Shown one piece after another: positions 1-63,103 of a DNA stretch of 64,000 bases (the stretch's first letter is position 1; each line of letters begins with the position of its first letter). The stretch is from the IMG/VR virus record IMGVR_UViG_3300037130_000236; one strand, written 5' to 3'. The translations under genes were made by a program, and so were the position numbers. Under the pieces are notes generated by a model, which ran no database searches, was not told the DNA's origin, and saw only the letters and a program-made list of their open reading frames with translations. This DNA is from a virus.

Positions 1-462
1 CTATGCGACCGCTGTGGTCGGCGTCCGTACCTCTTCCGTGGTGGCCCTGAGTGAGAGTAATCCGAAGCGGCCTTCGGCGGTCTTGTAGAACATTGTGCCC
101 TTGCTGGCACGTTTGTAGAGCATCTGATCCAGGGTTTTGGCCGGTCCGATTCCGTAGGTCTTCTTAATAAGCGCGCGGATCTCGTCCGGTGTCTTCTCTT
201 CTCCGTCGAGGTTGAGTAAGACGACCCGCGCCATTTCTAAGCTGTTGGGCCGTGCGTTCGGTGAATCCTTGCCCTCGGTGAGGGCCGTTAAGGTTACAGT
301 CTGGGGTGAATAGACCTGCGGTCGGGCGCTGATAAACCCATCCAAGTCCAAACGCGCTAGAAGCGCGGCATTTAAGGCAGTCTTGTATTTCTCCAGCCGA
401 ACGATTTGTTCGTTGACTCCTGCCAGTTCCTTCTCCAGTACCCCGGTGGTTTCTTCTGTCAT
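1..462 (-). CDS. Hypothetical protein, N-terminal coiled coil plus C-terminal winged-HTH (HARE-HTH-like)
   Basis: Probable start MTEETT at 462; C-terminal TPDEIRALIKKTYG...LDQMLYK...FYKTAEGRFGL resembles a wHTH. Confidence 0.5.
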   Translation of the reverse strand: MTEETTGVLEKELAGVNEQIVRLEKYKTALNAALLARLDLDGFISARPQVYSPQTVTLTALTEGKDSPNARPNSLEMARVVLLNLDGEEKTPDEIRALIKKTYGIGPAKTLDQMLYKRASKGTMFYKTAEGRFGLLSLRATTEEVRTPTTAVA

Positions 463-533
463 GTACTCTCCCGGCGACCAGTTTTCTGATCTGCTTGGAT
501 TAGAGCACAGAGTCATATACTAAGTCAAATACC

Positions 534-1127
534 CTATGGCATTATTGGCGATTTCAGTCTTGTACCATTCTTGGACTTTGCCGCAAGTCTGCCAAGACGG
601 ACCTTTTCTTTGAAGGCTGGGGATGCCATGAGCAATCGCAGTTTCTCCCTGAATTCAGGCGACCTCTTCACACCCGTTCGAGTCAGGCGTGACTTCGTTG
701 CGGCTTCCGGAGACTTCTTCTTTCCGAGGTGGGCCCGACTCATCCTGTCCCGAGTCTCCTGTGACCGTGGCCCTCTGACTTCACTGGCATGGCTGAGCCG
801 CATCTTCTCTTTTGATTCTGGAGGGTGAATGAAGCCACTGGCGCCGTCGCCGCCATCAGTCCTGTTGAGAAGGCAACCTGTCCCAATGTCAATTCGACCG
901 TATAACTTGATCAGTCGAATCTCTTCGGCAAGAGCATCAGTCTCTGCAAGTCCTTCTTTCAGAAGGACATTGTTGGCAGGATCTTGAGGCGGCTTGGCAT
1001 TGTGGTGTTTGCTGAAGCGACGATCTGTCTGGCCTTTCCCGATGTAGTAGGGTGAACCGACGACACCGAACTTGCTCGACCTGGACCGAAGATAGGCGTA
1101 CACGTAGAATCGGCATGGATTATCCAT
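534..1127 (-). CDS. Free-standing GIY-YIG homing endonuclease with NUMOD3 repeats
   Basis: FYVYAYL...YYIGKG GIY-YIG motif, conserved E...LLN, then HxxESKEKM / RSQETRDRMS / RSPEFREKL NUMOD3-like repeats. Confidence 0.85.
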   Translation of the reverse strand: MDNPCRFYVYAYLRSRSSKFGVVGSPYYIGKGQTDRRFSKHHNAKPPQDPANNVLLKEGLAETDALAEEIRLIKLYGRIDIGTGCLLNRTDGGDGASGFIHPPESKEKMRLSHASEVRGPRSQETRDRMSRAHLGKKKSPEAATKSRLTRTGVKRSPEFREKLRLLMASPAFKEKVRLGRLAAKSKNGTRLKSPIMP

Positions 1128-46560: not shown

Positions 46561-46865
46561 CGGGCGCCGACTCTCTCTGCGAGATCTATACCAGTCTTCT
46601 CTGTGAAGAGCGCCTGGCCTTCCCGGTAGCAGTCGTAGAGATCGGGCCTGTGTGTGTCCAGTTGAACCACCTGGATAAACCAGTCGGTGCATGCTCGGAT
46701 GATCGGACCTGATCCGTAAACCAGGTACCAGTTCCGCATCGCCAACAATAAGACCGCTGGGTTGATCGGGGGATGTATGTCGCACAGGACAGACTCAAGC
46801 ACCCGGATTGTTTCGTCGTCCAGGCGTCCCGTCTTGTCCAATGTACGATCCAAGGGATTTGCCAT
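46557..46865 (-). CDS. Hypothetical protein
   Basis: Start MANPLD with AGGAG SD, divergent from repressor. Confidence 0.65.
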   Translation of the reverse strand: MANPLDRTLDKTGRLDDETIRVLESVLCDIHPPINPAVLLLAMRNWYLVYGSGPIIRACTDWFIQVVQLDTHRPDLYDCYREGQALFTEKTGIDLAERVGAR

Positions 46866-46877
46866 TTCTTCTCCTAT

Positions 46878-46888
46878 CCAACTGTTAG
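46878..46888. promoter_or_regulatory. Candidate operator in the divergent repressor gap
   Basis: CCAACTGTTAG, 1 mismatch; abuts TTGACT-N18-GACAAT sigma70-like promoter candidate for the repressor. Confidence 0.55.
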
Positions 46889-46933
46889 TTGACTCAGGCT
46901 CGGTCTCGGATTGACAATGAACCCGGAGGCAGG

Positions 46934-47344
46934 ATGCCACGCACTTTAGGAAAGCACACCAATCACTTCGGTCCATTCATCAGACGGCGGCGACGCGAGT
47001 TGAGCCTGACGCAGCGCGAGGTCGCTGCGGCTCTCAAGGTCTCTGCGCCTGAGTTTGTTGGCATGATCGAATCGGGCCTTCGCAAGCCAAACTTCGAACG
47101 GTTACCTGCTCTGGCAGAAGTCTTGCAGGTTCCGGTCCTCGAGATGATCCAGATGGCTTTTGCAGACGTCTACCCAAGCCTGGTGGGCTACCTGACACAA
47201 GAACAAACAGCTCAGACCGCCAAGGCCAATCGGCTGGGTCAGAAGCTCTACGCTCTGCCCCAGCCAATACGCCAGCCCATCATCAAGATGATCGACAAGT
47301 TCTATGCCGAACGATCCGTCGAGAAGAAGGACAAAGTGGCGTAA
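46934..47344 (+). CDS. XRE/Cro-family HTH repressor
   Basis: IRRRRRELSLTQREVAAAL.V....V..IESGLRKP....L..LAEVL; GGAGG SD; only clear plus-strand gene. Confidence 0.9.
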   Translation: MPRTLGKHTNHFGPFIRRRRRELSLTQREVAAALKVSAPEFVGMIESGLRKPNFERLPALAEVLQVPVLEMIQMAFADVYPSLVGYLTQEQTAQTAKANRLGQKLYALPQPIRQPIIKMIDKFYAERSVEKKDKVA

Positions 47345-51356: not shown

Positions 51357-51536
51357 TTAGGCTTGCTCTGCAGGTAGAGGTGGCGCAACCAACCCGCGCT
51401 TCTCCCACTCCTCGCGGCAGACGGGATGATAGATCCACCACTTGGCTATCTCAGGCGGATCGTTCTCCTGAGCGTACTTGCGGAAATCGGCCTCTTCCGC
51501 CGGGTCGAGCTGGCGAAACAGAATCTCTTGCAGCAT
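51357..51536 (-). CDS. Small hypothetical protein
   Basis: 59-aa ORF MLQEILFRQL...YHPVCREEW not in track; GAGG SD. Confidence 0.55.
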   Translation of the reverse strand: MLQEILFRQLDPAEEADFRKYAQENDPPEIAKWWIYHPVCREEWEKRGLVAPPLPAEQA

Positions 51537-52278
51537 GTTTCCTCTTGCGTTCGCACTGGGTCACCGGTATAGGCGCCATCTGGCCGGTGGCGAGGTTGAC
51601 GAAGCCTCCTTGATAGGAAACCTCGCGGTGCCTGAACAGCCGCGCCAGCAAAGCGAGCGCGTGATTGGCCAGCACCTGGTTCACAAAGGGCTCCTGTCGT
51701 TTCAGCGCCTCGACGGAGCTGCAGGAGGGCAGAGTGTCCGAACCGTCCAGTCTGGGATCGAGGATCTCCGGGTAGAGTTCCGCGACCGTGAGCAGACGGT
51801 ACTTGGCATGCTGATTGCGCCGGTTCCGGGGCTGGCCCAGAACGAACTGACCGTTGTCGGCATTGTTCCCGATGTCCAGCCAGTAGAGCGTCTTCTTGAA
51901 GGCTGGAGACCGGCTGATGGCCAGCCTGGCCGCCCGCGTATCCACACAGGTGATCAGGATGTCTACAACCCCATCCGTCTTCTCTGTGAAGTGCCCGGTG
52001 GAGGCGTTCCATTTCAGTCCCCAGAAGAGGTTCAGCCTGTTGGCAATTACCAGTGACTTGTACAGGCCGATCTCCGACTGGGAGAAGGGCTGCCTTACAC
52101 AATTGGTGGAGGAGATGCGATCGCCATCAACGAAGATGACATTGAGACCAGGCTGTCCCTCGGCAAGGAGGGACTGGTTGATGTACGGCAAGCCGCCGGC
52201 CAGCGCACTGCCCGTCCCTCCACATCCCACCACTGCGACGCGAGTTCGAGAACACCTGTGATCCAGCTTGTGGTTCAA
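51451..52278 (-). CDS. PRTRC system ThiF/E1-like adenylating enzyme
   Basis: VGCGGTGS, VDGDRIS.TN.VRQ, ITCVD, WLDIGN, LPSCS; TTG start coupled to upstream TGA. Confidence 0.9.
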   Translation of the reverse strand: MNHKLDHRCSRTRVAVVGCGGTGSALAGGLPYINQSLLAEGQPGLNVIFVDGDRISSTNCVRQPFSQSEIGLYKSLVIANRLNLFWGLKWNASTGHFTEKTDGVVDILITCVDTRAARLAISRSPAFKKTLYWLDIGNNADNGQFVLGQPRNRRNQHAKYRLLTVAELYPEILDPRLDGSDTLPSCSSVEALKRQEPFVNQVLANHALALLARLFRHREVSYQGGFVNLATGQMAPIPVTQCERKRKHAARDSVSPARPGGRGRFPQVRSGERSA

Positions 52279-52565
52279 GGGATTGCCACCGATCTCTTGA
52301 CTCGCTTGTACTTGTTGCGAAGACGCAGCCTCTGCTTGTTGAAGATTGTGATCGTTAACCGCGAGCCCATGTTCAGAAGAGAGAATTCCATCTTCTCGAC
52401 CAGGGCGTAGTGAAGGCTCACCCCAGTCGTTAGATCGACCAGCGGATACTTGCCCGTGGTCTTGATGTAGAAGCTGCCTTTGCACTCCAGGATGGTTCCG
52501 ATTTCAAAGTCCTGAAAGCGATAACGCAACCCAACGGTAACAGCGATTGTGTTCTTCATTGGCAT
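52275..52565 (-). CDS. Hypothetical protein inserted in PRTRC cassette
   Basis: 96 aa, coupled to both neighbours. Confidence 0.55.
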   Translation of the reverse strand: MPMKNTIAVTVGLRYRFQDFEIGTILECKGSFYIKTTGKYPLVDLTTGVSLHYALVEKMEFSLLNMGSRLTITIFNKQRLRLRNKYKRVKRSVAIP

Positions 52566-53278
52566 CCTTCAGTCAGCAAGTCACGAACTGTCTGTTTGGA
52601 GGGGTGCAGATACTCGAGGCCGAATGCTTCAGCGCCGGCCAGCTCCGTCCACAGCCCAAGGAAACCTCCGGAGTGCTTGGTAAGCACACCAGCACCGCTG
52701 GGATGAGTGAACTCGCTATCGAAGAAACCTTCTTCCCAGACTTCCAACGTGGACACGTCGGTGACCCTCGGCCGCTTCATGCTGCCTGAGCAGACACTTC
52801 CTCGACCTGGCTCGGTGTTCCAGTAGGGAGCCACGAAGAGTGGATCTTCCGGATCAGGACGATGATCCCCAGCCAGGGCGCGCAAGGATAAGCGGCCGCG
52901 GTTGACGATCCAGATCAAAGCCGGGTGAGGAAACACCTGGCCATTCAGAGCTACAGCCTCTTCCTTGTGGAAGAACATGGCCCGCTTTCTTGCTGGCGTC
53001 CACCAGACAATCGCGTTGGAGTTGCAGGCGATGACATTCGGCGGCAGGTAAACCAGACCGGTCTTCTGGCCAAGAGTCTCCAGGAGTTCAGTCAACAACT
53101 CGATCGAGATGAGGCTGCCAGGGCCGACCTGCAACTCCCCGTCCAGGCAAACCGGCGTGTGTTCAGTCAGGAATCCGGACTTGTCCTTCTCGGTTCCGCC
53201 AGCATAGTAGAGCAGCACCTTGTTCAGGGTGTACTCATGGCGCATCCCAATGTTTACTTCGAGGTGCATTTCTCCCAC
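52556..53278 (-). CDS. PRTRC system protein B (prokaryotic E2 family D-like)
   Basis: LPPNVI...VWWTPA...FPHPALIW...APYWN...VCSG...WE..FF.SEFTH. Confidence 0.8.
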   Translation of the reverse strand: MGEMHLEVNIGMRHEYTLNKVLLYYAGGTEKDKSGFLTEHTPVCLDGELQVGPGSLISIELLTELLETLGQKTGLVYLPPNVIACNSNAIVWWTPARKRAMFFHKEEAVALNGQVFPHPALIWIVNRGRLSLRALAGDHRPDPEDPLFVAPYWNTEPGRGSVCSGSMKRPRVTDVSTLEVWEEGFFDSEFTHPSGAGVLTKHSGGFLGLWTELAGAEAFGLEYLHPSKQTVRDLLTEGCQ

Positions 53279-54465: not shown

Positions 54466-54675
54466 CTACCCCTTGGCGCCCACTGCCCGACCGAAGCGGA
54501 ACCGCAGCTTGCCGTTGCGGGCCTCAGGGCCCACAACTGTTGCCGTGGTGATCTCGGGGTACTGCGGAGCGTACATCGCCCGCACCTGCTCGATGGTGAA
54601 TTCCGGATTGGGGTCCGGCAACACTGCATCATCGAACACGAACTCCCGCGTCATTTTCTCGACTTTGACTGCCAT
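54466..54675 (-). CDS. PRTRC system protein C (ubiquitin-like)
   Basis: REFVF....LPDPNP...EQVR.MYA.QYPEITTA...GP......F...VGAKG C-terminal Gly. Confidence 0.85.
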   Translation of the reverse strand: MAVKVEKMTREFVFDDAVLPDPNPEFTIEQVRAMYAPQYPEITTATVVGPEARNGKLRFRFGRAVGAKG

Positions 54676-55262
54676 TATTCGGCCTCGCCTTCGTCGAATC
54701 CGTCTGGTAGTTCAGCGGGAAGTTCGCCGTCTTCTGCCGGCGGCGCCGCGGCGGGCTCCTCGGCGTGAACGGCGGCAGCGGCATTGGCATCGCCCGCGGC
54801 CTCCCAGAGTGTGAAGGTATCCGGGGCCTGGGCAGTACCAGCCGTTGTCTTGGTTGGATGAACGGCAGGCTTGCCTTCATCCTTCTTGTCGGCCTTCGCC
54901 GGCGTCACCTTGGTCTTGGCCTTCGCCGTTGCTTCCTTGGCTGACTTGGCAACCTCGGCAAGCGTCTCCTGGAGTTCCTTCAGGCTTTCCAGAACGGTTG
55001 TGTGGCCGTCGGAGTAGCTGGCCAGCAATTGAGGCAGCTCAGCGTCGATCTCTTCGGGTGTGCCCACCAGGGATAGAGGTGTGATCAAGGCTGCAACATC
55101 TTCCTTTGTCACGCCTTCCTTCTGGGTCACGTCGCGGGTCAGCTGGCTGTCACTGTCGACCGCCTTGGGAATGACGTTGACCCTGATTTTGGTCTTGTCA
55201 ACCGAAGCGATCGTAATCGTCACGGGCCGACTCTGAAGAATCGGCATCAGTTCTGTGAACAT
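54675..55262 (-). CDS. PRTRC system protein E
   Basis: MF.EL.P.......IRVNVIP...PLSLVGTPEEIDAEL, Ala/Lys-rich tail. Confidence 0.85.
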   Translation of the reverse strand: MFTELMPILQSRPVTITIASVDKTKIRVNVIPKAVDSDSQLTRDVTQKEGVTKEDVAALITPLSLVGTPEEIDAELPQLLASYSDGHTTVLESLKELQETLAEVAKSAKEATAKAKTKVTPAKADKKDEGKPAVHPTKTTAGTAQAPDTFTLWEAAGDANAAAAVHAEEPAAAPPAEDGELPAELPDGFDEGEAE

Positions 55263-55295: not shown

Positions 55296-56483
55296 CTATA
55301 GATCGGTTACACCGGAACGGTGGCCGCCAAGCTCAGTCCTGAATCGGATCTGACCTTTGAATTCCTCCGGCCGGTTCCAATCGAACAGACACGGATCACT
55401 CAGGTTGTAAAAGGGATTGATTTCCAACAGCTTGACACCGTACTGGTTATAGCTGTCAGAAAGACTCCGCCGGCGCTTGATGAACACATCGAAGACTACT
55501 GAATCGAGATGAGAAGCATCTCGCAATTCCTTGTCAAAGAACTGCTCGATCGCCCACTTGATGCCGGCGGCGTCTTCGGTAATCTCCGAGTACACTCCGC
55601 GGTAGTAGTATTGGCTGATCCCGACGAGCTTGCGGTCCTGCATGAAGCAACGGAACTCTGACCACTCGGGCAGGTCCAGACCTTCACGAATCCAAACACT
55701 GGGCGGGTAGTTCATGGCGATCTGCATGTGCAGGTCGTCATAGATGCGCTCGGAACAGCAGGTCAGGAGATCGAAAGCCATCTGGCCTGAGGTGATCTGG
55801 CCATTTGGCAACTGAGCGCCTTCGCCGAGGCTACATCCCCAGTAGAAAGCATCCTTCGGACTGCGCGAGCCAAGGCGGACAAAGATACCCTTTGGAAACT
55901 GCTGAACGGCCTTGTCCAGCCGTGCGATCAGGTGATCCTTTACCGTCTCGTGGTTCTCGGGCACACCCTCGGTAAAGCCTTCGCCCAGCTCGATGATGTA
56001 GCTGCCCATGACGCGCGCTTCTTCCAGGGTCATCTGAACCCTTACTGAGGGAACCGACAAGCTGTGCAAAGCGTTCGGCCAGCTCTCTATGTAGGTCGGC
56101 CATGACACATCCCAGATGGGTCCCTTGGGCTTGTATCTCTCCGACTCGGGCTTCTTCAACCACTCTTCCCCGGCGGCTATACTTGCCTTCATCATGGCAA
56201 GAGAAAACTCATGGCGCTCTGGTGAACCAGGCGCGCCGAACTCTGCGAACCGATCTGTCGAGGGGTCGTAGTCACTCATGTCAGGAATATCTTCCTGATG
56301 TGCAACGGCGCCGCCGGTACGGCCGCACCCTTCGCAAGGATGGCTGGTGTGGGATAAACAGCCGACATGGCTGCATGGTTCACCCGGCTCAAGCGTTATC
56401 GCTGTGGTTAAACCAGCGATCCGCTCCTGCTCCCGCCACCATTCCGGGGGATGAGTGTGTTCGTTCATTGGGGTGTCTGCCAT
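55296..56483 (-). CDS. CDC123/R2K-like ATP-grasp protein
   Basis: FVRLGSRSPKD, EFRCF, GISQY, VFDVF, LLEINPF...DPCLFDW; start MADTP at 56483. Confidence 0.75.
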   Translation of the reverse strand: MADTPMNEHTHPPEWWREQERIAGLTTAITLEPGEPCSHVGCLSHTSHPCEGCGRTGGAVAHQEDIPDMSDYDPSTDRFAEFGAPGSPERHEFSLAMMKASIAAGEEWLKKPESERYKPKGPIWDVSWPTYIESWPNALHSLSVPSVRVQMTLEEARVMGSYIIELGEGFTEGVPENHETVKDHLIARLDKAVQQFPKGIFVRLGSRSPKDAFYWGCSLGEGAQLPNGQITSGQMAFDLLTCCSERIYDDLHMQIAMNYPPSVWIREGLDLPEWSEFRCFMQDRKLVGISQYYYRGVYSEITEDAAGIKWAIEQFFDKELRDASHLDSVVFDVFIKRRRSLSDSYNQYGVKLLEINPFYNLSDPCLFDWNRPEEFKGQIRFRTELGGHRSGVTDL

Positions 56484-56497
56484 GTTTCTCCAAAGTT

Positions 56498-56580
56498 TGA
56501 CGGCGGTTGGATTCGAACCCACGAAGGCTTGAGCCAGCAGTTTTGCAGATTGCCGTGTTTGACCACTTCGCTACCGCACG
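56498..56580 (-). tRNA. Degenerate long-variable-arm tRNA, Tyr-like body with GCA (Cys) anticodon; possible pseudogene
   Basis: AAGTGGTCAAAC D-loop, GCAAT-CTGCAAA-ACTGC anticodon arm, GGC-TCAA-GCC variable arm, GGTTCGAATCC; mismatches in several stems; no CCA. Confidence 0.6.
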
Positions 56581-59603: not shown

Positions 59604-59690
59604 TGGTGCAGATGAAGAGACTCGAACTCATACGCCGTTACGGGCACCAGCACCTCAAGCTGGCGTGTCTGCCAATTCCACCACATCTGC
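59604..59690 (-). tRNA. tRNA-Leu(GAG)
   Basis: Complete cloverleaf, CCAGC-TTGAGGT-GCTGG, long variable arm, encoded CCA. Confidence 0.95.
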
Positions 59691-59699
59691 GCTACAAGG

Positions 59700-59773
59700 T
59701 GGCTGGCGGTCAGGGATTCGAACCCCGATAAGCGCCTCCAAAGGGCACTATCCTACCGTTAGATGAACCGCCA
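59700..59773 (-). tRNA. tRNA-Gln(TTG)
   Basis: Complete cloverleaf, GTGCC-CTTTGGA-GGCGC, encoded CCA. Confidence 0.93.
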
Positions 59774-59777
59774 GTAG

Positions 59778-60266
59778 TTAAGCTGCTTCCGAGGTTACTG
59801 CGGCCGTTTCATCTTCCAAAGGCTCGGGAATGACCGTCGGCTCATCCCCTTCCTTGTAGTAGATGGAATGAGGTTTGCCATCTTCGACAGGAAGACGATA
59901 ACCGATAAGGTTTGGCATCCCGGCGTAAGGTGGACAAGCCCGAACGGTGCCTTGAACTGCCGTGAGGCGATAGCGAGTACCATCTGATGTCTGAATCAGT
60001 TGGCCCGCTTCATAAGGACTCTCCATTGCGATCGCGTGGTTGCGCTGCTCGATTGCTCTTGCAAGTTCAAACTGTCGTGTTTGCACACGTTTTACCAGCT
60101 CGGCGACTGTGGTCGCCGACATGTTGGCCTTCATTCGAGGATCGTTGTCCGGCCAGCAAATGTCGATGATGGAGTCCAGATGCCTACCCTGATGGGTGTG
60201 GTCTTTGTCGCACCGCGCGACACAACCGTCGTCCAGACGAATCCACTTCGCACAGATGAAACCCAT
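59778..60266 (-). CDS. Hypothetical protein
   Basis: 162 aa, N-terminal C/H motif. Confidence 0.65.
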   Translation of the reverse strand: MGFICAKWIRLDDGCVARCDKDHTHQGRHLDSIIDICWPDNDPRMKANMSATTVAELVKRVQTRQFELARAIEQRNHAIAMESPYEAGQLIQTSDGTRYRLTAVQGTVRACPPYAGMPNLIGYRLPVEDGKPHSIYYKEGDEPTVIPEPLEDETAAVTSEAA

Positions 60267-60268
60267 GG

Positions 60269-60460
60269 CTATTCCTGCTCCTCATCTTCTGAGCTGTCGT
60301 CTTCCTCTTCGATCTGAGCGGCAACCCATTGCCAATAGCCGCGTCGCGTGTTGTTCTCATTGACCTCTTGTTGCCAGTCAGTGACCGAATGTGTGGGATG
60401 TGAATTCCATTCCCCGTACTTCTCGGCAAGCTCCTCGGCGGACAGTTCTTTGTCAGGCAT
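60269..60460 (-). CDS. Small acidic protein (DW..EV...TR.GYW.W family)
   Basis: 63 aa; similar to 26888-27067. Confidence 0.7.
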   Translation of the reverse strand: MPDKELSAEELAEKYGEWNSHPTHSVTDWQQEVNENNTRRGYWQWVAAQIEEEDDSSEDEEQE

Positions 60461-61067
60461 AAAGCTCCAGGTGGCCGATTACGGCGTCTACATCGGCTTT
60501 GCAAACAGGCGTGGTGCAAATGGCAGTCAGGACACTCTCTTCCGTTCCATAGAACGGAGGATTGCTGTCGTGGAATGATTGGACCCGATAACGGCAGTTG
60601 CCTTCGATTCCGGCGGTTCCCGTCAAGGAGTCCTGAACGAGGGCTTCCCGAATCATCTTCAGTTCCCGGCTGTTTCGCACGCTGAGTACGATCGTCGTGA
60701 TTGGCTCAAGAATGGTTTCATCGCCGTTGTTAATGATCTCGCACCCACGCATGGCCGATACGACATGGGCGCACTGCGCCATCAGGCGGCCGGGCTCCAT
60801 GGAAATCGACCGCGGCGAACTGTCGGGCGGAGTGACCTGAACGGTTTTTGGAACGATCACATAGATCCGCTCTTCCGAGATCTCCTCAGCTTCAGTCCCT
60901 TCGTCCGCATTTGCAGGCGCTGGCACATCTATGTCCGTCACCTGATGCTCGAACACGTAGTTGCTCTCGTGGATCGTATCGACCGCTTGCACCAGCAACT
61001 GCCGGATTTCGCCCACATGCGGCTTCTCAACGGTCACCTTCAAGGTGACCTCGCTGAACTCTCTCAT
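60453..61067 (-). CDS. Peptidyl-tRNA hydrolase type 2-like protein with N-terminal extension
   Basis: GRLMAQCAHV, TIVLSV, FHD, LTAICTTP...VDAVIGHLEL match the Pth2 layout. Confidence 0.7.
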   Translation of the reverse strand: MREFSEVTLKVTVEKPHVGEIRQLLVQAVDTIHESNYVFEHQVTDIDVPAPANADEGTEAEEISEERIYVIVPKTVQVTPPDSSPRSISMEPGRLMAQCAHVVSAMRGCEIINNGDETILEPITTIVLSVRNSRELKMIREALVQDSLTGTAGIEGNCRYRVQSFHDSNPPFYGTEESVLTAICTTPVCKADVDAVIGHLELYA

Positions 61068-61115
61068 CGTTTCTCCGATACAACTGCATCCTATGGAATT
61101 GTTGGCTGGAATTGG

Positions 61116-61132
61116 ATAGAGGAAAGCCCCTA
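61116..61132 (-). promoter_or_regulatory. Candidate directional motif upstream of pth2-like gene
   Basis: Minus strand TAGGGGCTTTCCTCTAT. Confidence 0.45.
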
Positions 61133-61142
61133 AACGTACGAA

Positions 61143-61160
61143 GGGCGCCCGAAGGCGCCC
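61143..61160 (-). terminator. GGGCGCC-UUCG-GGCGCCC hairpin (copy 1)
   Basis: 7-bp stem, UUCG loop; identical copy at 62089-62106. Confidence 0.55.
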
Positions 61161-61164
61161 CGGC

Positions 61165-61320
61165 TCACGACACATACCCTCGGTATCGAGGCTTGGTCGG
61201 TGCATTTTCTAAATCGGCCTTTGCCAGACGTCGATTCAACTTGGCATTGCGCCGCTTGTACGTCTTTCTGATCACTCGGCCCTTCACGGAAGAGTCGAGC
61301 TGTTCAATCTTCAGTTTCAT
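61165..61320 (-). CDS. Small basic hypothetical protein
   Basis: 51-aa ORF MKLKIEQ...RYRGYVS not in track, GAGG SD. Confidence 0.55.
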   Translation of the reverse strand: MKLKIEQLDSSVKGRVIRKTYKRRNAKLNRRLAKADLENAPTKPRYRGYVS

Positions 61321-61338: not shown

Positions 61339-61962
61339 TCAGACACTGACGGGGACCAGCTTGTGGCGAACCGCGTACATGACGAGTTGAACTTTGTTGT
61401 GGCACCCGATCTTCTCCATCAAGGTCGACTTATGCACTTCCACGGTCTTTGCGCTCAAACCGAGGAGGATGGAGATTTCCTTGACGCTGTTTCCCTCGGC
61501 GAGCATCTTTAGAACCTCATTCTGTCGAGGAGACAGCCGATGGAAGCCGGCAGAGTGTTCATGTCCGGTAAATCTGGGCAGAATGGAAAAGTGGGAATCG
61601 CCGCGATAGATCTTGGCAATCACTTTCTGCAGCTCATCGAAACCACACGTCTTCGTCAGGTAGGCCGAGGCTCCAGCTTCGACTGCATTGAGGATATGCT
61701 CTTCTTCGGTTGATCCGGTAAGAAACATCACTTTCAGTGGAAAGTGAGAAGACTTGGCCCATCGAGCCGCTTCAAATGGATCGGCGCCTGGGATATTCAC
61801 ATCGAGGATGAGAATATCGACCTTCTGGTCGACAGCATGTTCTGCTGCCTCGCGCGCATCTCCATGATCCCCGATGATTCGGATCGTGGAAGTCTGTTCC
61901 ATGATCTTGCACAGAATTTCACGGACCAGAACATGGTCGTCCGCCATTACACATCGAATCAT
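61339..61962 (-). CDS. NarL/FixJ-family (LuxR-HTH) response regulator, no cognate kinase in window
   Basis: ADDH, ILDVN phospho-Asp, LTG, YLTK; LSPRQNEVL..LAEG.SVKEIS..L.LS.KTVE.H. Confidence 0.92.
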   Translation of the reverse strand: MIRCVMADDHVLVREILCKIMEQTSTIRIIGDHGDAREAAEHAVDQKVDILILDVNIPGADPFEAARWAKSSHFPLKVMFLTGSTEEEHILNAVEAGASAYLTKTCGFDELQKVIAKIYRGDSHFSILPRFTGHEHSAGFHRLSPRQNEVLKMLAEGNSVKEISILLGLSAKTVEVHKSTLMEKIGCHNKVQLVMYAVRHKLVPVSV

Positions 61963-62030: not shown

Positions 62031-62088
62031 TGAATCTTTTGTGACATGGAATACATGATGTTTCTGTATAATGCGCGTCCGGCCTGCT

Positions 62089-62106
62089 GGGCGCCCGAAG
62101 GCGCCC
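62089..62106 (-). terminator. GGGCGCC-UUCG-GGCGCCC hairpin (copy 2), near likely 3' end of tmRNA coding piece
   Basis: Identical to 61143-61160. Confidence 0.5.
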
Positions 62107-62152
62107 TTCTGTTGCCAGGCCAAGCAGACTTGGCCCCGTCTAGTCTTTCGGA

Positions 62153-62245
62153 CTAGACAGCAGCAAGAACGCCCAGGGTGTTCTCCGCGGCCGTGGCCGG
62201 TTCGAAGACCTCAAACGTCATGCTGGCGACATACCCAGTGTTGGC
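62153..62245 (-). other. tmRNA tag reading frame (A)ANTGYVASMTFEVFEPATAAENTLGVLAAV*
   Basis: 31 codons from GCC after an AT-rich resume context to TAG in a hairpin. Confidence 0.75.
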
Positions 62246-62355
62246 ATATATGCGTCTGTGTGTCCTTCTGCCGATCCAAAGATCGACACGGCAGCCACAC
62301 CACCCGGCTCGTCATCTCTATCCGTCACTGATTCCGTCGAAACCGTGACGGGCCC

Positions 62356-62421
62356 ACCAAAGCCCTCTCTGACTTACATTCCCCCGAAGTTCGGTGAACT
62401 TCAGCTAAAGCATGAGGGCTT
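62356..62421 (-). other. Intervening segment of permuted tmRNA precursor
   Basis: ACCA-AAGCCCTC pairs with GAGGGCTT-TGGT, extending the acceptor stem; internal GAAGTTC/GAACTTC hairpin. Confidence 0.85.
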
Positions 62422-62490
62422 TGGTGGACCCGGAGGGAATCGAACCCTCGTCCGAAATCGTGAAGACGATCTGTCTTCTCACGAGCGTTA
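62422..62490 (-). ncRNA. ssrA: Two-piece tmRNA, acceptor piece (5' end uncertain, may extend to about 62600)
   Basis: GCTCGT...GATTTCGGAC-GAGGG-TTCGATT-CCCTC-CGGGTCC-A-CCA; G3.U70 pair with coding piece. Confidence 0.9.
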
Positions 62491-62723
62491 TACTCCCCAT
62501 TCCTGGGGAAACTTGATGCGGGAGACTCTCGCCAGTGAGCCTTTAATCAACTTTGGAGCCGGTTCTTTCCGGAATCTCCACGGCCTGACCCGCATCTGTG
62601 GGCACAGTGTCAACGTTTTTATCGTGGTGTGCGTCACCCACCTGGTGCCTTGTTCCGTGCCCAATTTGCTTTGGGTGCAGCCAAAGCCTCGTCCGCTGTG
62701 TGTCGAAGGTACTTCCGTCTGGG

Positions 62724-62759
62724 CTACTTTGCGTTTCGAACTGAATCTACTTTGCGTTT
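62724..62759. repeat. Two exact 13-bp direct repeats CTACTTTGCGTTT, 23-bp period
   Basis: 62724-62736 and 62747-62759 in noncoding DNA upstream of tmRNA. Confidence 0.7.
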
Positions 62760-62890
62760 GGCCTACTCTTGGTTTCCCGTGCACCGGTCAGCCACGAAGT
62801 CCTTGCAGTCAACGCCTTTCAGCTCCTGCTCTGACTTCGCCGGCGGGAATATCAACCCGTCGCCCGCTACCCATCCGCACCCAAACTCGA

Positions 62891-63103
62891 TTACTCCGTG
62901 TATTTGCGACCGTCGATCGAAACAGAAAGGCCATCGTTCGATGCGCCTTTCACTATTTCCAACGCGAGTCGGGAATCGTCGGTATAGGCTAAGCCTTGAG
63001 GATCGGAATCTTGAACATTCTTCCGAACCCAGGCGGCCCCTTCTTCGCTTCGGCCTTGAATGGAGTAAATCCCAGTACCTGCAACTTCAATGTCGAAATC
63101 CAT
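62891..63103 (-). CDS. Small hypothetical protein
   Basis: Start MDFDIE at 63103 with AGGAG SD. Confidence 0.6.
   Translation of the reverse strand: MDFDIEVAGTGIYSIQGRSEEGAAWVRKNVQDSDPQGLAYTDDSRLALEIVKGASNDGLSVSIDGRKYTE

Follow-up and report, generated by a model that had tools for sequence, protein, structure and literature searches.

A probable two-piece tmRNA gene encoded by a jumbo phage

A 64,000-nt stretch of viral DNA (IMG/VR record IMGVR_UViG_3300037130_000236; the whole analysed stretch is called the window below) carries near its end what is probably the functional gene (ssrA) of a two-piece transfer-messenger RNA (tmRNA), belonging to a jumbo phage. With ARAGORN, a permuted tmRNA that has a 30-amino-acid (aa) tag is called at 62062–62514 on the minus strand, and the Rfam model tmRNA_permuted (RF04321; gathering cut-off 47 bits) is matched over its full length (positions 1–213) at 62218–62486 with 70.7 bits and an E value of 1.4e-11 for the whole window. 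The order of parts is the one that RF04321 describes, a 3′ tRNA-like half with CCA followed by a spacer and by a 5′ tRNA-like half with the tag frame. Together with covariation in relatives, these two matches lie well outside what chance would give and bear out the original prediction of a circularly permuted tmRNA at this locus, whose motifs all lie on the minus strand at the positions it gave. ARAGORN and Rfam scans had been suggested as a check on it, and they return the permuted call and RF04321 above its cut-off, with the alpha and beta tmRNA models below theirs. The companion claim that tRNA scanners would see only a fragment does not hold, because the ARAGORN permuted call and the full-length RF04321 match mean that a standard scanner detects the whole gene and its tag.

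Three forms of tmRNA gene are recognised, the permuted form giving rise to a two-piece RNA (PMC11915505). The gene had been placed at 62085–62490; the locus is the same, but the real gene is longer, running from ~62520 to ~62074. Across 19 metagenome copies, ~6% of sites vary inside these limits against ~50% directly downstream, and upstream of ~62520 relatives with a 97%-identical tmRNA no longer align. A co-fold and a precursor fold lead us to infer, tentatively, a terminal helix (CGCATC/GACGCG) that coincides with both conservation limits. Within the structured parts of the gene, the variable sites of the 19 copies fall only in hairpin loops and the spacer, and the tag shows a few conservative changes. 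We regard the tmRNA gene as real and probably functional.

The surrounding genes place it on a jumbo phage, in agreement with the phage-like carrier first proposed. On one side, in the window, are replication genes, nearly all of them on the minus strand: a primase-helicase, DNA polymerase pieces, a ribonucleotide reductase, a UvsX-like recombinase, a clamp and a RecD-like helicase. The opposite side is represented by an IMG/VR record of 124 kb (G001; 98% identical), in which portal, terminase, ligase and nuclease/exonuclease genes lie, and a sister record of 178 kb (G002) is 92–98% identical to the window on both tmRNA flanks. The tmRNA occurs on at least 23 contigs (19 metagenome contigs, one of them 452 kb long, three IMG/VR loci in G001 and G002, and one JGI contig), and these 23 copies are either 96–100% identical or belong to a second allele.

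Architecture and covariation of the tmRNA

The predicted precursor is made up of an acceptor piece, an intervening sequence and a coding piece (Table 1). Its tRNA-like domain is complete, with a 7-bp acceptor stem, a T arm with a GGTTCGA-type loop, and the elements GGUUUCGAC and UUUCGGAC. Covariation was assessed in an alignment of seven sequences: the window copy (allele A), a 96% variant (L263), two copies of the second allele (allele B; L162 and L260) and three viral relatives (L148, L190 and L075). The pair count covers 41 pairs in six helices and leaves out the pk1 (first pseudoknot) region, where the alignment register is poor. Standard pairs fill 88.4% of cells, against 34–50% when partners are slid by 1–3 columns, and 21 pairs have changed on both sides, against 3–6 in the slid controls. 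For four of five measures the observed value lies beyond all 500 shuffles, and for the fifth two of the 500 reach it. Covariance among homologues, which had been set beforehand as a test, is thus found.

All seven acceptor-stem pairs (62426–62432 with 62349–62355) form in each of the seven sequences, and the G3·U70 pair proposed with that stem (G62353·U62428) is invariant in all of them, so that with A73 and the CCA end the identity set for alanyl-tRNA synthetase (AlaRS) is present. T-stem pairing is complete (100% of cells; 5/5 pairs in all seven sequences), and four of the five pairs have changed on both sides among relatives. Both cross-piece P2 pairings of the original prediction, GGAATC/GATTTC (P2a) and ACGAGC/GCTCGT (distal P2), were recovered: P2a is paired in 95% of cells, with three pairs changed on both sides, and distal P2 reads GCTTGT/ACAAGC in allele B, which is compensatory. 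The GNRA-loop hairpin on the 5′ side of the acceptor piece becomes CCCTG-GCAA-CAGGG in allele B, equivalent to two compensatory pairs, and its loop alternates between GGAA, GAAA and GCAA among copies. From 62486 to 62422, the 96–100% identical copies contain no variable site apart from a 1-base gap at 62447 in one copy.

The ends of the intervening sequence extend the acceptor helix across A73-CCA by 12 bp (12/12 further pairs), as had been claimed for the spacer. In one metagenome copy of allele B (L260) the spacer is nearly deleted (~12 nt) and the flanking tmRNA parts are intact; such a loss, with both functional parts kept, fits a spacer that is discarded.

Downstream of the distal P2 strand, the pk1-like region comprises a short stem (CGG/CCG), a long stem (GTGTGGCT/GGACACAC) and an inserted hairpin, GATC-TTTG-GATC. 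A homologous block, GCCGGG...ACCGTAAC..., is found in L148, L190, L075 and allele B. The long second stem is clear and, by eye, conserved in kind among relatives; the pk1-like pseudoknot that had been claimed is plausible rather than firm, because the first stem has ~3 bp.

The predicted AT-rich resume site and the stop codon inside a hairpin are both present. The resume codon GCC is preceded by GCATATAT and takes the same position in the Rfam alignment, where its context UAUAU-GCC-AAC aligns with the consensus UAAAU-GCa-AAC. The tag frame ends in LAAV, and its TAG stop lies within an 8-bp hairpin whose variation among copies is confined to the loop. The tag contains neither Lys nor Arg. Of the 19 metagenome copies, 16 retain its 30-aa length together with the stop; two of the remaining three have no ARAGORN call, and the call in L260 is a wrong 12-aa frame, yet its tag region aligns. 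Substitutions among copies amount to T3S, M9L, T23I and L24M/T, plus two silent changes. In the two hairpins of the 3′ domain, variation is restricted to the TTCG loop, and the AACAGAA motif between them also occurs in L148 and L190.

Table 1 Coordinates of the tmRNA features and neighbouring genes in the window
Feature	Position	Strand	Basis
Whole permuted tmRNA gene (precursor: acceptor piece, intervening sequence, coding piece)	62074–62520	-	ARAGORN, RF04321, conservation drop
Possible terminal helix, CGCATC with GACGCG	62515–62520 with 62074–62079	-	Co-fold and precursor fold
Acceptor piece: possible terminal-helix 5′ strand, GNRA hairpin, P2 3′ strands, T arm, acceptor 3′ strand, A73, encoded CCA	62422–62520	-	Sequence and Rfam alignment
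GNRA-loop hairpin, 5 bp, CCCCA-GGAA-TGGGG, 5′ side of acceptor piece	62495–62508	-	
Distal P2, acceptor-piece strand GCTCGT (partner ACGAGC, 62307–62312)	62481–62486	-	6/6 pairs
P2a, acceptor-piece strand GATTTC (partner GGAATC, 62330–62335)	62454–62459	-	
T arm, GAGGG-TTCGATT-CCCTC	62433–62449	-	
Acceptor 3′ strand CGGGTCC (62432–62426), discriminator A73 (62425), encoded CCA (62424–62422)	62422–62432	-	
Intervening sequence, 66 nt, predicted to be removed; holds an inner hairpin	62356–62421	-	
Coding-piece 5′ end: GGGCCCG (62355–62349), TCAC, GGTTTCGAC (62344–62336; D-loop analogue), P2a strand GGAATC (62335–62330)	62330–62355	-	Rfam alignment
Distal P2 strand ACGAGC, then pk1-like region	62257–62312	-	
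Tag reading frame: resume codon GCC (62245), 30 codons ANTGYVASMTFEVFEPATAAENTLGVLAAV, stop TAG (62155–62153)	62153–62245	-	ARAGORN, Rfam
Stop-codon hairpin, 8 bp (P5-like)	62138–62158	-	Sequence and fold
Two 7-bp 3′-domain hairpins, GGCCAAG-TCTG-CTTGGCC and GGGCGCC-TTCG-GGCGCCC, with AACAGAA between	62089–62135	-	Fold
Response regulator (receiver and LuxR/GerE helix-turn-helix), next gene downstream of the tmRNA	61339–61962	-	Pfam PF00072 (3e-18), PF00196 (3e-20)
Protein with C-terminal PTH2-like (peptidyl-tRNA hydrolase 2) domain	60453–61205	-	Pfam PF01981, 24.3 bits, cut-off 23 (borderline)
tRNA-Leu(GAG) and tRNA-Gln(TTG)	59604–59773	-	ARAGORN and Rfam

Viral relatives and two alleles

Phage-borne tmRNAs have been described in several settings. 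One-piece forms are known from Bxz1-like mycobacteriophages and Bacillus phage G (PMC4131195), and huge phages carry tmRNAs (PMC7162821). Two-piece forms occur in phage Melnitz, pelagimyophages and cyanophages, and ARAGORN makes two-piece calls for 53 of 133 unique phage tmRNAs (PMC9004378). In two pattern scans of IMG/VR we obtained at least 213 ARAGORN calls of permuted tmRNAs; almost all of those tested match Rfam beta_tmRNA over its full length (87–171 bits), and many adjoin tRNA arrays. The rarity implied by the original prediction falls away, and we claim no novelty, because two-piece phage tmRNAs are already published and are abundant in IMG/VR. By its model matches, the window gene is a divergent member of this known class, and allele B is an outlier as well. 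Nor is a separate permutation, also suggested earlier, established: the tRNA-like domain matches the beta model best, in part, and among the matches listed it is permuted tmRNAs of other viral contigs that come closest.

In gene order, tRNA-like domain, P2 pairings and resume-codon position the gene agrees with RF04321, but its 70.7 bits are among the lowest scores, other viral copies reaching 88–148 bits, and it has a longer spacer, the inserted hairpin in the pk1 region and the 30-aa tag. Of the lineage models, beta (RF01850) is the best for the tRNA-like domain and shares the layout of tag, hairpins and a GC-rich end hairpin. Some beta-type viral copies (L088, L067 and L116) likewise have the acceptor stem GGGCCCG and long tags that start ANT or ANA. 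In contrast, the distal P2, pk1 and 3′ domain of the window copy stay unaligned to the beta model, and the window copy has the extra GNRA hairpin on its 5′ side. Cultured marine phages (Methylophilales phage Melnitz, pelagimyophages and cyanophages) likewise have a complete permuted ssrA in large myovirus-like genomes without smpB, and the role proposed for their two-piece tmRNAs is to sustain translation by the hijacked machinery (PMC9004378). Theirs belong to alpha or cyano lineages, however, and the Melnitz gene is joined to a glutamine riboswitch (PMC9004378), whereas Rfam finds no riboswitch family in the window and the alpha model scores 9 bits. A published precedent is the functional two-piece tmRNA of Caulobacter: as PMC9004378 and PMC11915505 relay the work of Keiler, Shapiro and Williams (2000), its gene is likewise permuted, and its precursor was experimentally shown to be cut by tRNA-processing enzymes into two base-paired RNAs; unlike the window gene, it is chromosomal, of alpha lineage and with a short tag.

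Among the matches listed, the nearest relatives other than the gene's own copies are the IMG/VR loci L148/L149, L190 and L075, on unrelated contigs. L148 is 77% identical over 133 nt, part of the spacer included. They share with the window copy the helix extension across the CCA, the GCCGGG...ACCGTAAC pk1 block, AACAGAA and a C4–G69 acceptor pair; they differ in having tags of 27, 27 and 12 aa that end MAA, in lacking the GNRA hairpin, and in their unrelated flanking genes. The cultured-phage collection yields a single match, Myxococcus phage Mx1 (OR576727.2). Its tmRNA agrees with the window copy at 32/32 nt over the T arm and acceptor 3′ strand; common to the two are also the GGGCC(T/C)G 5′ strand, the derived CGAGC/GCTCG pair of distal P2 and a closely similar resume context, GCATA.A.G.CAACACT. 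The Mx1 gene differs in its standard order, four-pseudoknot-type architecture and 14-aa tag (VNTNVFGSQMMAAA), and in having no encoded CCA. This one-piece Mx1 tmRNA (~46646–47023; L268:1156–1533) scores 117.7 bits with RF00023, lies within a tRNA cluster and is unannotated in the record, where a 41-aa 'Hef-like endonuclease' coding sequence is drawn across its 3′ end.

The acceptor/spacer arrangement has no match in representative genomes of 185,579 species (two scans; GGGC start, 50–80 nt spacer). Since these patterns are narrow, it is therefore only this viral arrangement that is absent, and bacterial relatives may exist.

Sister phages carry two versions of the gene. Between allele A in the window and allele B in G002, identity is 65.7% in the acceptor piece, 36.4% in the spacer and 49% in the P2–pk1 region, against 100% (184/184) from the resume region to the 3′ end; a 26-nt 5′ core of the coding piece is 96% identical, though its flanks diverge on both sides. 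At least seven pairs differ compensatorily between the alleles. In its tRNA-like half, allele A resembles allele B less than it does L148 (77%), which comes from an unrelated phage. Because this is so while the phage flanks are 92–98% identical, the pattern points to exchange of the tRNA-like module by recombination. Directly upstream of the allele-B tmRNA is a 210-aa open reading frame (ORF; L237:687–1319, G002:115879–116511) that is absent from the window and forms part of the swapped segment; it has no match among Pfam or PHROG families, and co-conversion by a homing endonuclease as the cause of the swap is therefore without support. We also considered a prophage/host-ssrA junction, since the two records agree completely (100%) in the 3′ half and differ in the 5′ half; it is ruled out, both flanks being shared phage DNA (92–98%) with phage structural genes beyond.

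Long tags are common in this class. Viral permuted tmRNAs (L002–L234; for example L123, L067, L137, L191 and L159) often encode 23–33 aa, in recurring families of which several end FAV or LAV; examples are ANADTFDFSAMSFTGNTV...ALAA, AKASTGEVTVSGKNVKFSARTVKAESFAV and ANASTFEYFTVEGFTADNGLVAA. The same tag is found with different acceptor stems, and many of the long tags resemble a normal ANDxxxALAA-type tag preceded by an added N-terminal block. A broader proposal, which we hold to be rather unlikely, is that the window gene, L148, L190 and L075 form a phage-kept permuted lineage apart from alpha, beta and cyano, perhaps derived from an Mx1-like one-piece tmRNA by a permutation of its own. The tRNA-like module would then be swapped between phages, perhaps fitting the SmpB, AlaRS or RNase P of different hosts, with the long-tag module unchanged.

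Proposed function and alternative readings

In the mechanism we propose, a single precursor would be transcribed and cut by host RNase P before G62355, and 3′ trimming would leave an acceptor piece ending at the CCA (62422), releasing the spacer. The two RNAs would remain joined through the acceptor stem and P2. Following charging by host AlaRS, host SmpB and EF-Tu would bring the RNA to ribosomes stalled on broken mRNAs during infection, where translation would resume at GCC, add ANTGYVASMTFEVFEPATAAENTLGVLAAV and be released at UAG. The hydrophobic LAAV end would direct the product to host proteases, and the gain to the phage would be freed ribosomes.

Several observations weigh against a working two-piece tmRNA of this kind. 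The tag ends in V rather than AA and is three times the usual length, and because of this its role as a degron is an assumption of the model. The first pk1 stem is weak, and the minimum-energy fold favours some local hairpins over the canonical mid-P2 in allele A. The lineage models respond poorly: beta gives 47.6 bits (cut-off 84) over model positions 76–172, the tRNA-like part only, and alpha (RF01849) gives 9 bits (cut-off 50) in the 3′ domain only; the cyano model (RF01851) is unlisted at E up to 10, which puts its score below 47.6 bits, lower-scoring matches of the same clan being hidden. A scan of the gene's strand found neither a sigma-70-like promoter nor an intrinsic terminator. SmpB (PF01668) has no match in G001 or G002, near-identical records that cover the region and are 58% and 83% complete, which agrees with the absence of smpB noted at the outset, and a second tmRNA was likewise not found in these two records.

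Given the atypical tag, the RNA might enter ribosomes without serving ordinary degradation tagging. It would then compete with or replace host tmRNA, and the long tag would lead to another protein fate, such as proteolysis that is slower or of another kind, recycling of amino acids directed at host proteins, or monitoring of the host translation state. A 30-aa tag ending LAAV instead of LAA, identical in two sister phages with differing tRNA-like domains, is compatible with this, as are the tags of 23–33 aa, several of them FAV- or LAV-ended, in many viral permuted tmRNAs; their recurrence would therefore mark a feature selected in phages. There has been discussion of tmRNA-like phage RNAs inhibiting the tmRNA of the host (DS6A; PMC4131195, PMC11915505) and of phages tagging selectively (PMC9004378). 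We nevertheless consider such a departure improbable: the C terminus is still hydrophobic and Ala-rich, like known degrons, the second half of the tag (AENTLGVLAA) resembles a normal ANDxxxALAA tag, and nothing in the sequence demands a different fate, all parts for full trans-translation being present.

Chances appear very small that the element picked the gene up as a passenger, either a copy of a host ssrA or what was left of an integration site, and that it does nothing for the phage. Integration often occurs at tmRNA genes, and prophages contain fragments of them (PMC4383910, PMC9004378), but this gene is complete and no fragment; and although G001 and G002 are labelled proviruses, with a tyrosine integrase at the left end of G002, the tmRNA lies ~116 kb from that integrase end with phage genes on both sides. 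It is conserved in ~23 contigs with variation limited to loops and the spacer, the same subfamily sits on unrelated phage contigs, and the acceptor/spacer arrangement of this gene is the one without a match in the 185,579 species' genomes. Hardly more credible is a transcript that is not cut in two as proposed, staying a single permuted RNA (working or not) or being cut at other sites, for instance by RNase III in the 19-bp extended helix. The acceptor stem does run unbroken for 12 more pairs across the CCA, an unusual RNase P substrate, but this extension is kept in relatives of differing sequence and is a trait of known permuted precursors; the spacer itself varies freely and can be lost, and without cutting the RNA would lack a free CCA end for charging. 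Full trans-translation by a processed two-piece tmRNA remains the reading we prefer.

Little is understood of phage-encoded tmRNAs, and to our knowledge no benefit to the phage has been demonstrated. The locus provides a natural experiment, in which sister phages 92–98% identical combine one tag module with two very different tRNA-like modules. The features that stand out are the allele swap, the spacer deletion in L260 and the long, atypically ending tag, and they offer handles on the host-matching parts of a two-piece tmRNA, on the importance of the spacer, and on whether phage tags are ordinary degrons. A lesson for annotation is that the alpha and beta Rfam models miss the window copy, and that the general model and ARAGORN find it.

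Phage context and neighbouring genes

No close cultured relative of the phage was found, its portal protein sharing 32% identity or less with jumbo-myovirus portals. IMG/VR labels both G001 and G002 as proviruses, and G002 contains a tyrosine integrase domain (307–807, minus strand, 60 bits) within a 589-aa open frame at its left end. Because of this integrase and the provirus labels, the jumbo phage may be temperate. Position ~1627, just inside the window, is where the two IMG/VR records stop.

Immediately upstream of the tmRNA, some 380 nt (62521–62900, minus strand) contain no called gene, vary among relatives and are replaced in allele-B phages; no Rfam family and no sigma-70-type promoter were found there. 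We considered this hairpin-rich stretch as displaced pk2–pk4 and rejected it, relatives with a 97%-identical tmRNA being unmatched over 62521–62598 and 78% identical beyond, and allele-B phages differing. Past the end of the window, ~2.6 kb upstream of the tmRNA on a JGI contig of 293 kb (L267:234–875), is a gene for a SpoU-type RNA methyltransferase.

The response regulator that follows the tmRNA is a complete two-component type, and no partner kinase was seen nearby; an identical protein is encoded on the same JGI contig (293,436 bp). The next protein, with the PTH2-like domain, has no sequence match in PDB. Further downstream, the segment 59099–60441, with tRNA-Gln, tRNA-Leu and an ORF at 59778–60266, is missing from the sister phage G002, and on the JGI contig ARAGORN makes no tRNA call in the 4.7 kb that follow the tmRNA. 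The segment appears to be an optional tRNA cassette.

Elsewhere in the window, an ORF at 534–1127 (minus strand) has a NUMOD3 motif, typical of homing endonucleases, and a 51%-identical homologue on the unrelated tmRNA-bearing contig L190. A ThiF-like E1 (51451–52485), a prokaryotic E2 of family D (52556–53278) and a weak PRTRC_E match (54675–55262) stand together on the minus strand; the segment 51451–55262 looks like a PRTRC-type ubiquitin-like cassette within the phage. The gene at 55296–56522 (minus strand) encodes a protein with a D123 (CDC123-like ATP-grasp) domain (78.5 bits), which is also called on the JGI contig.

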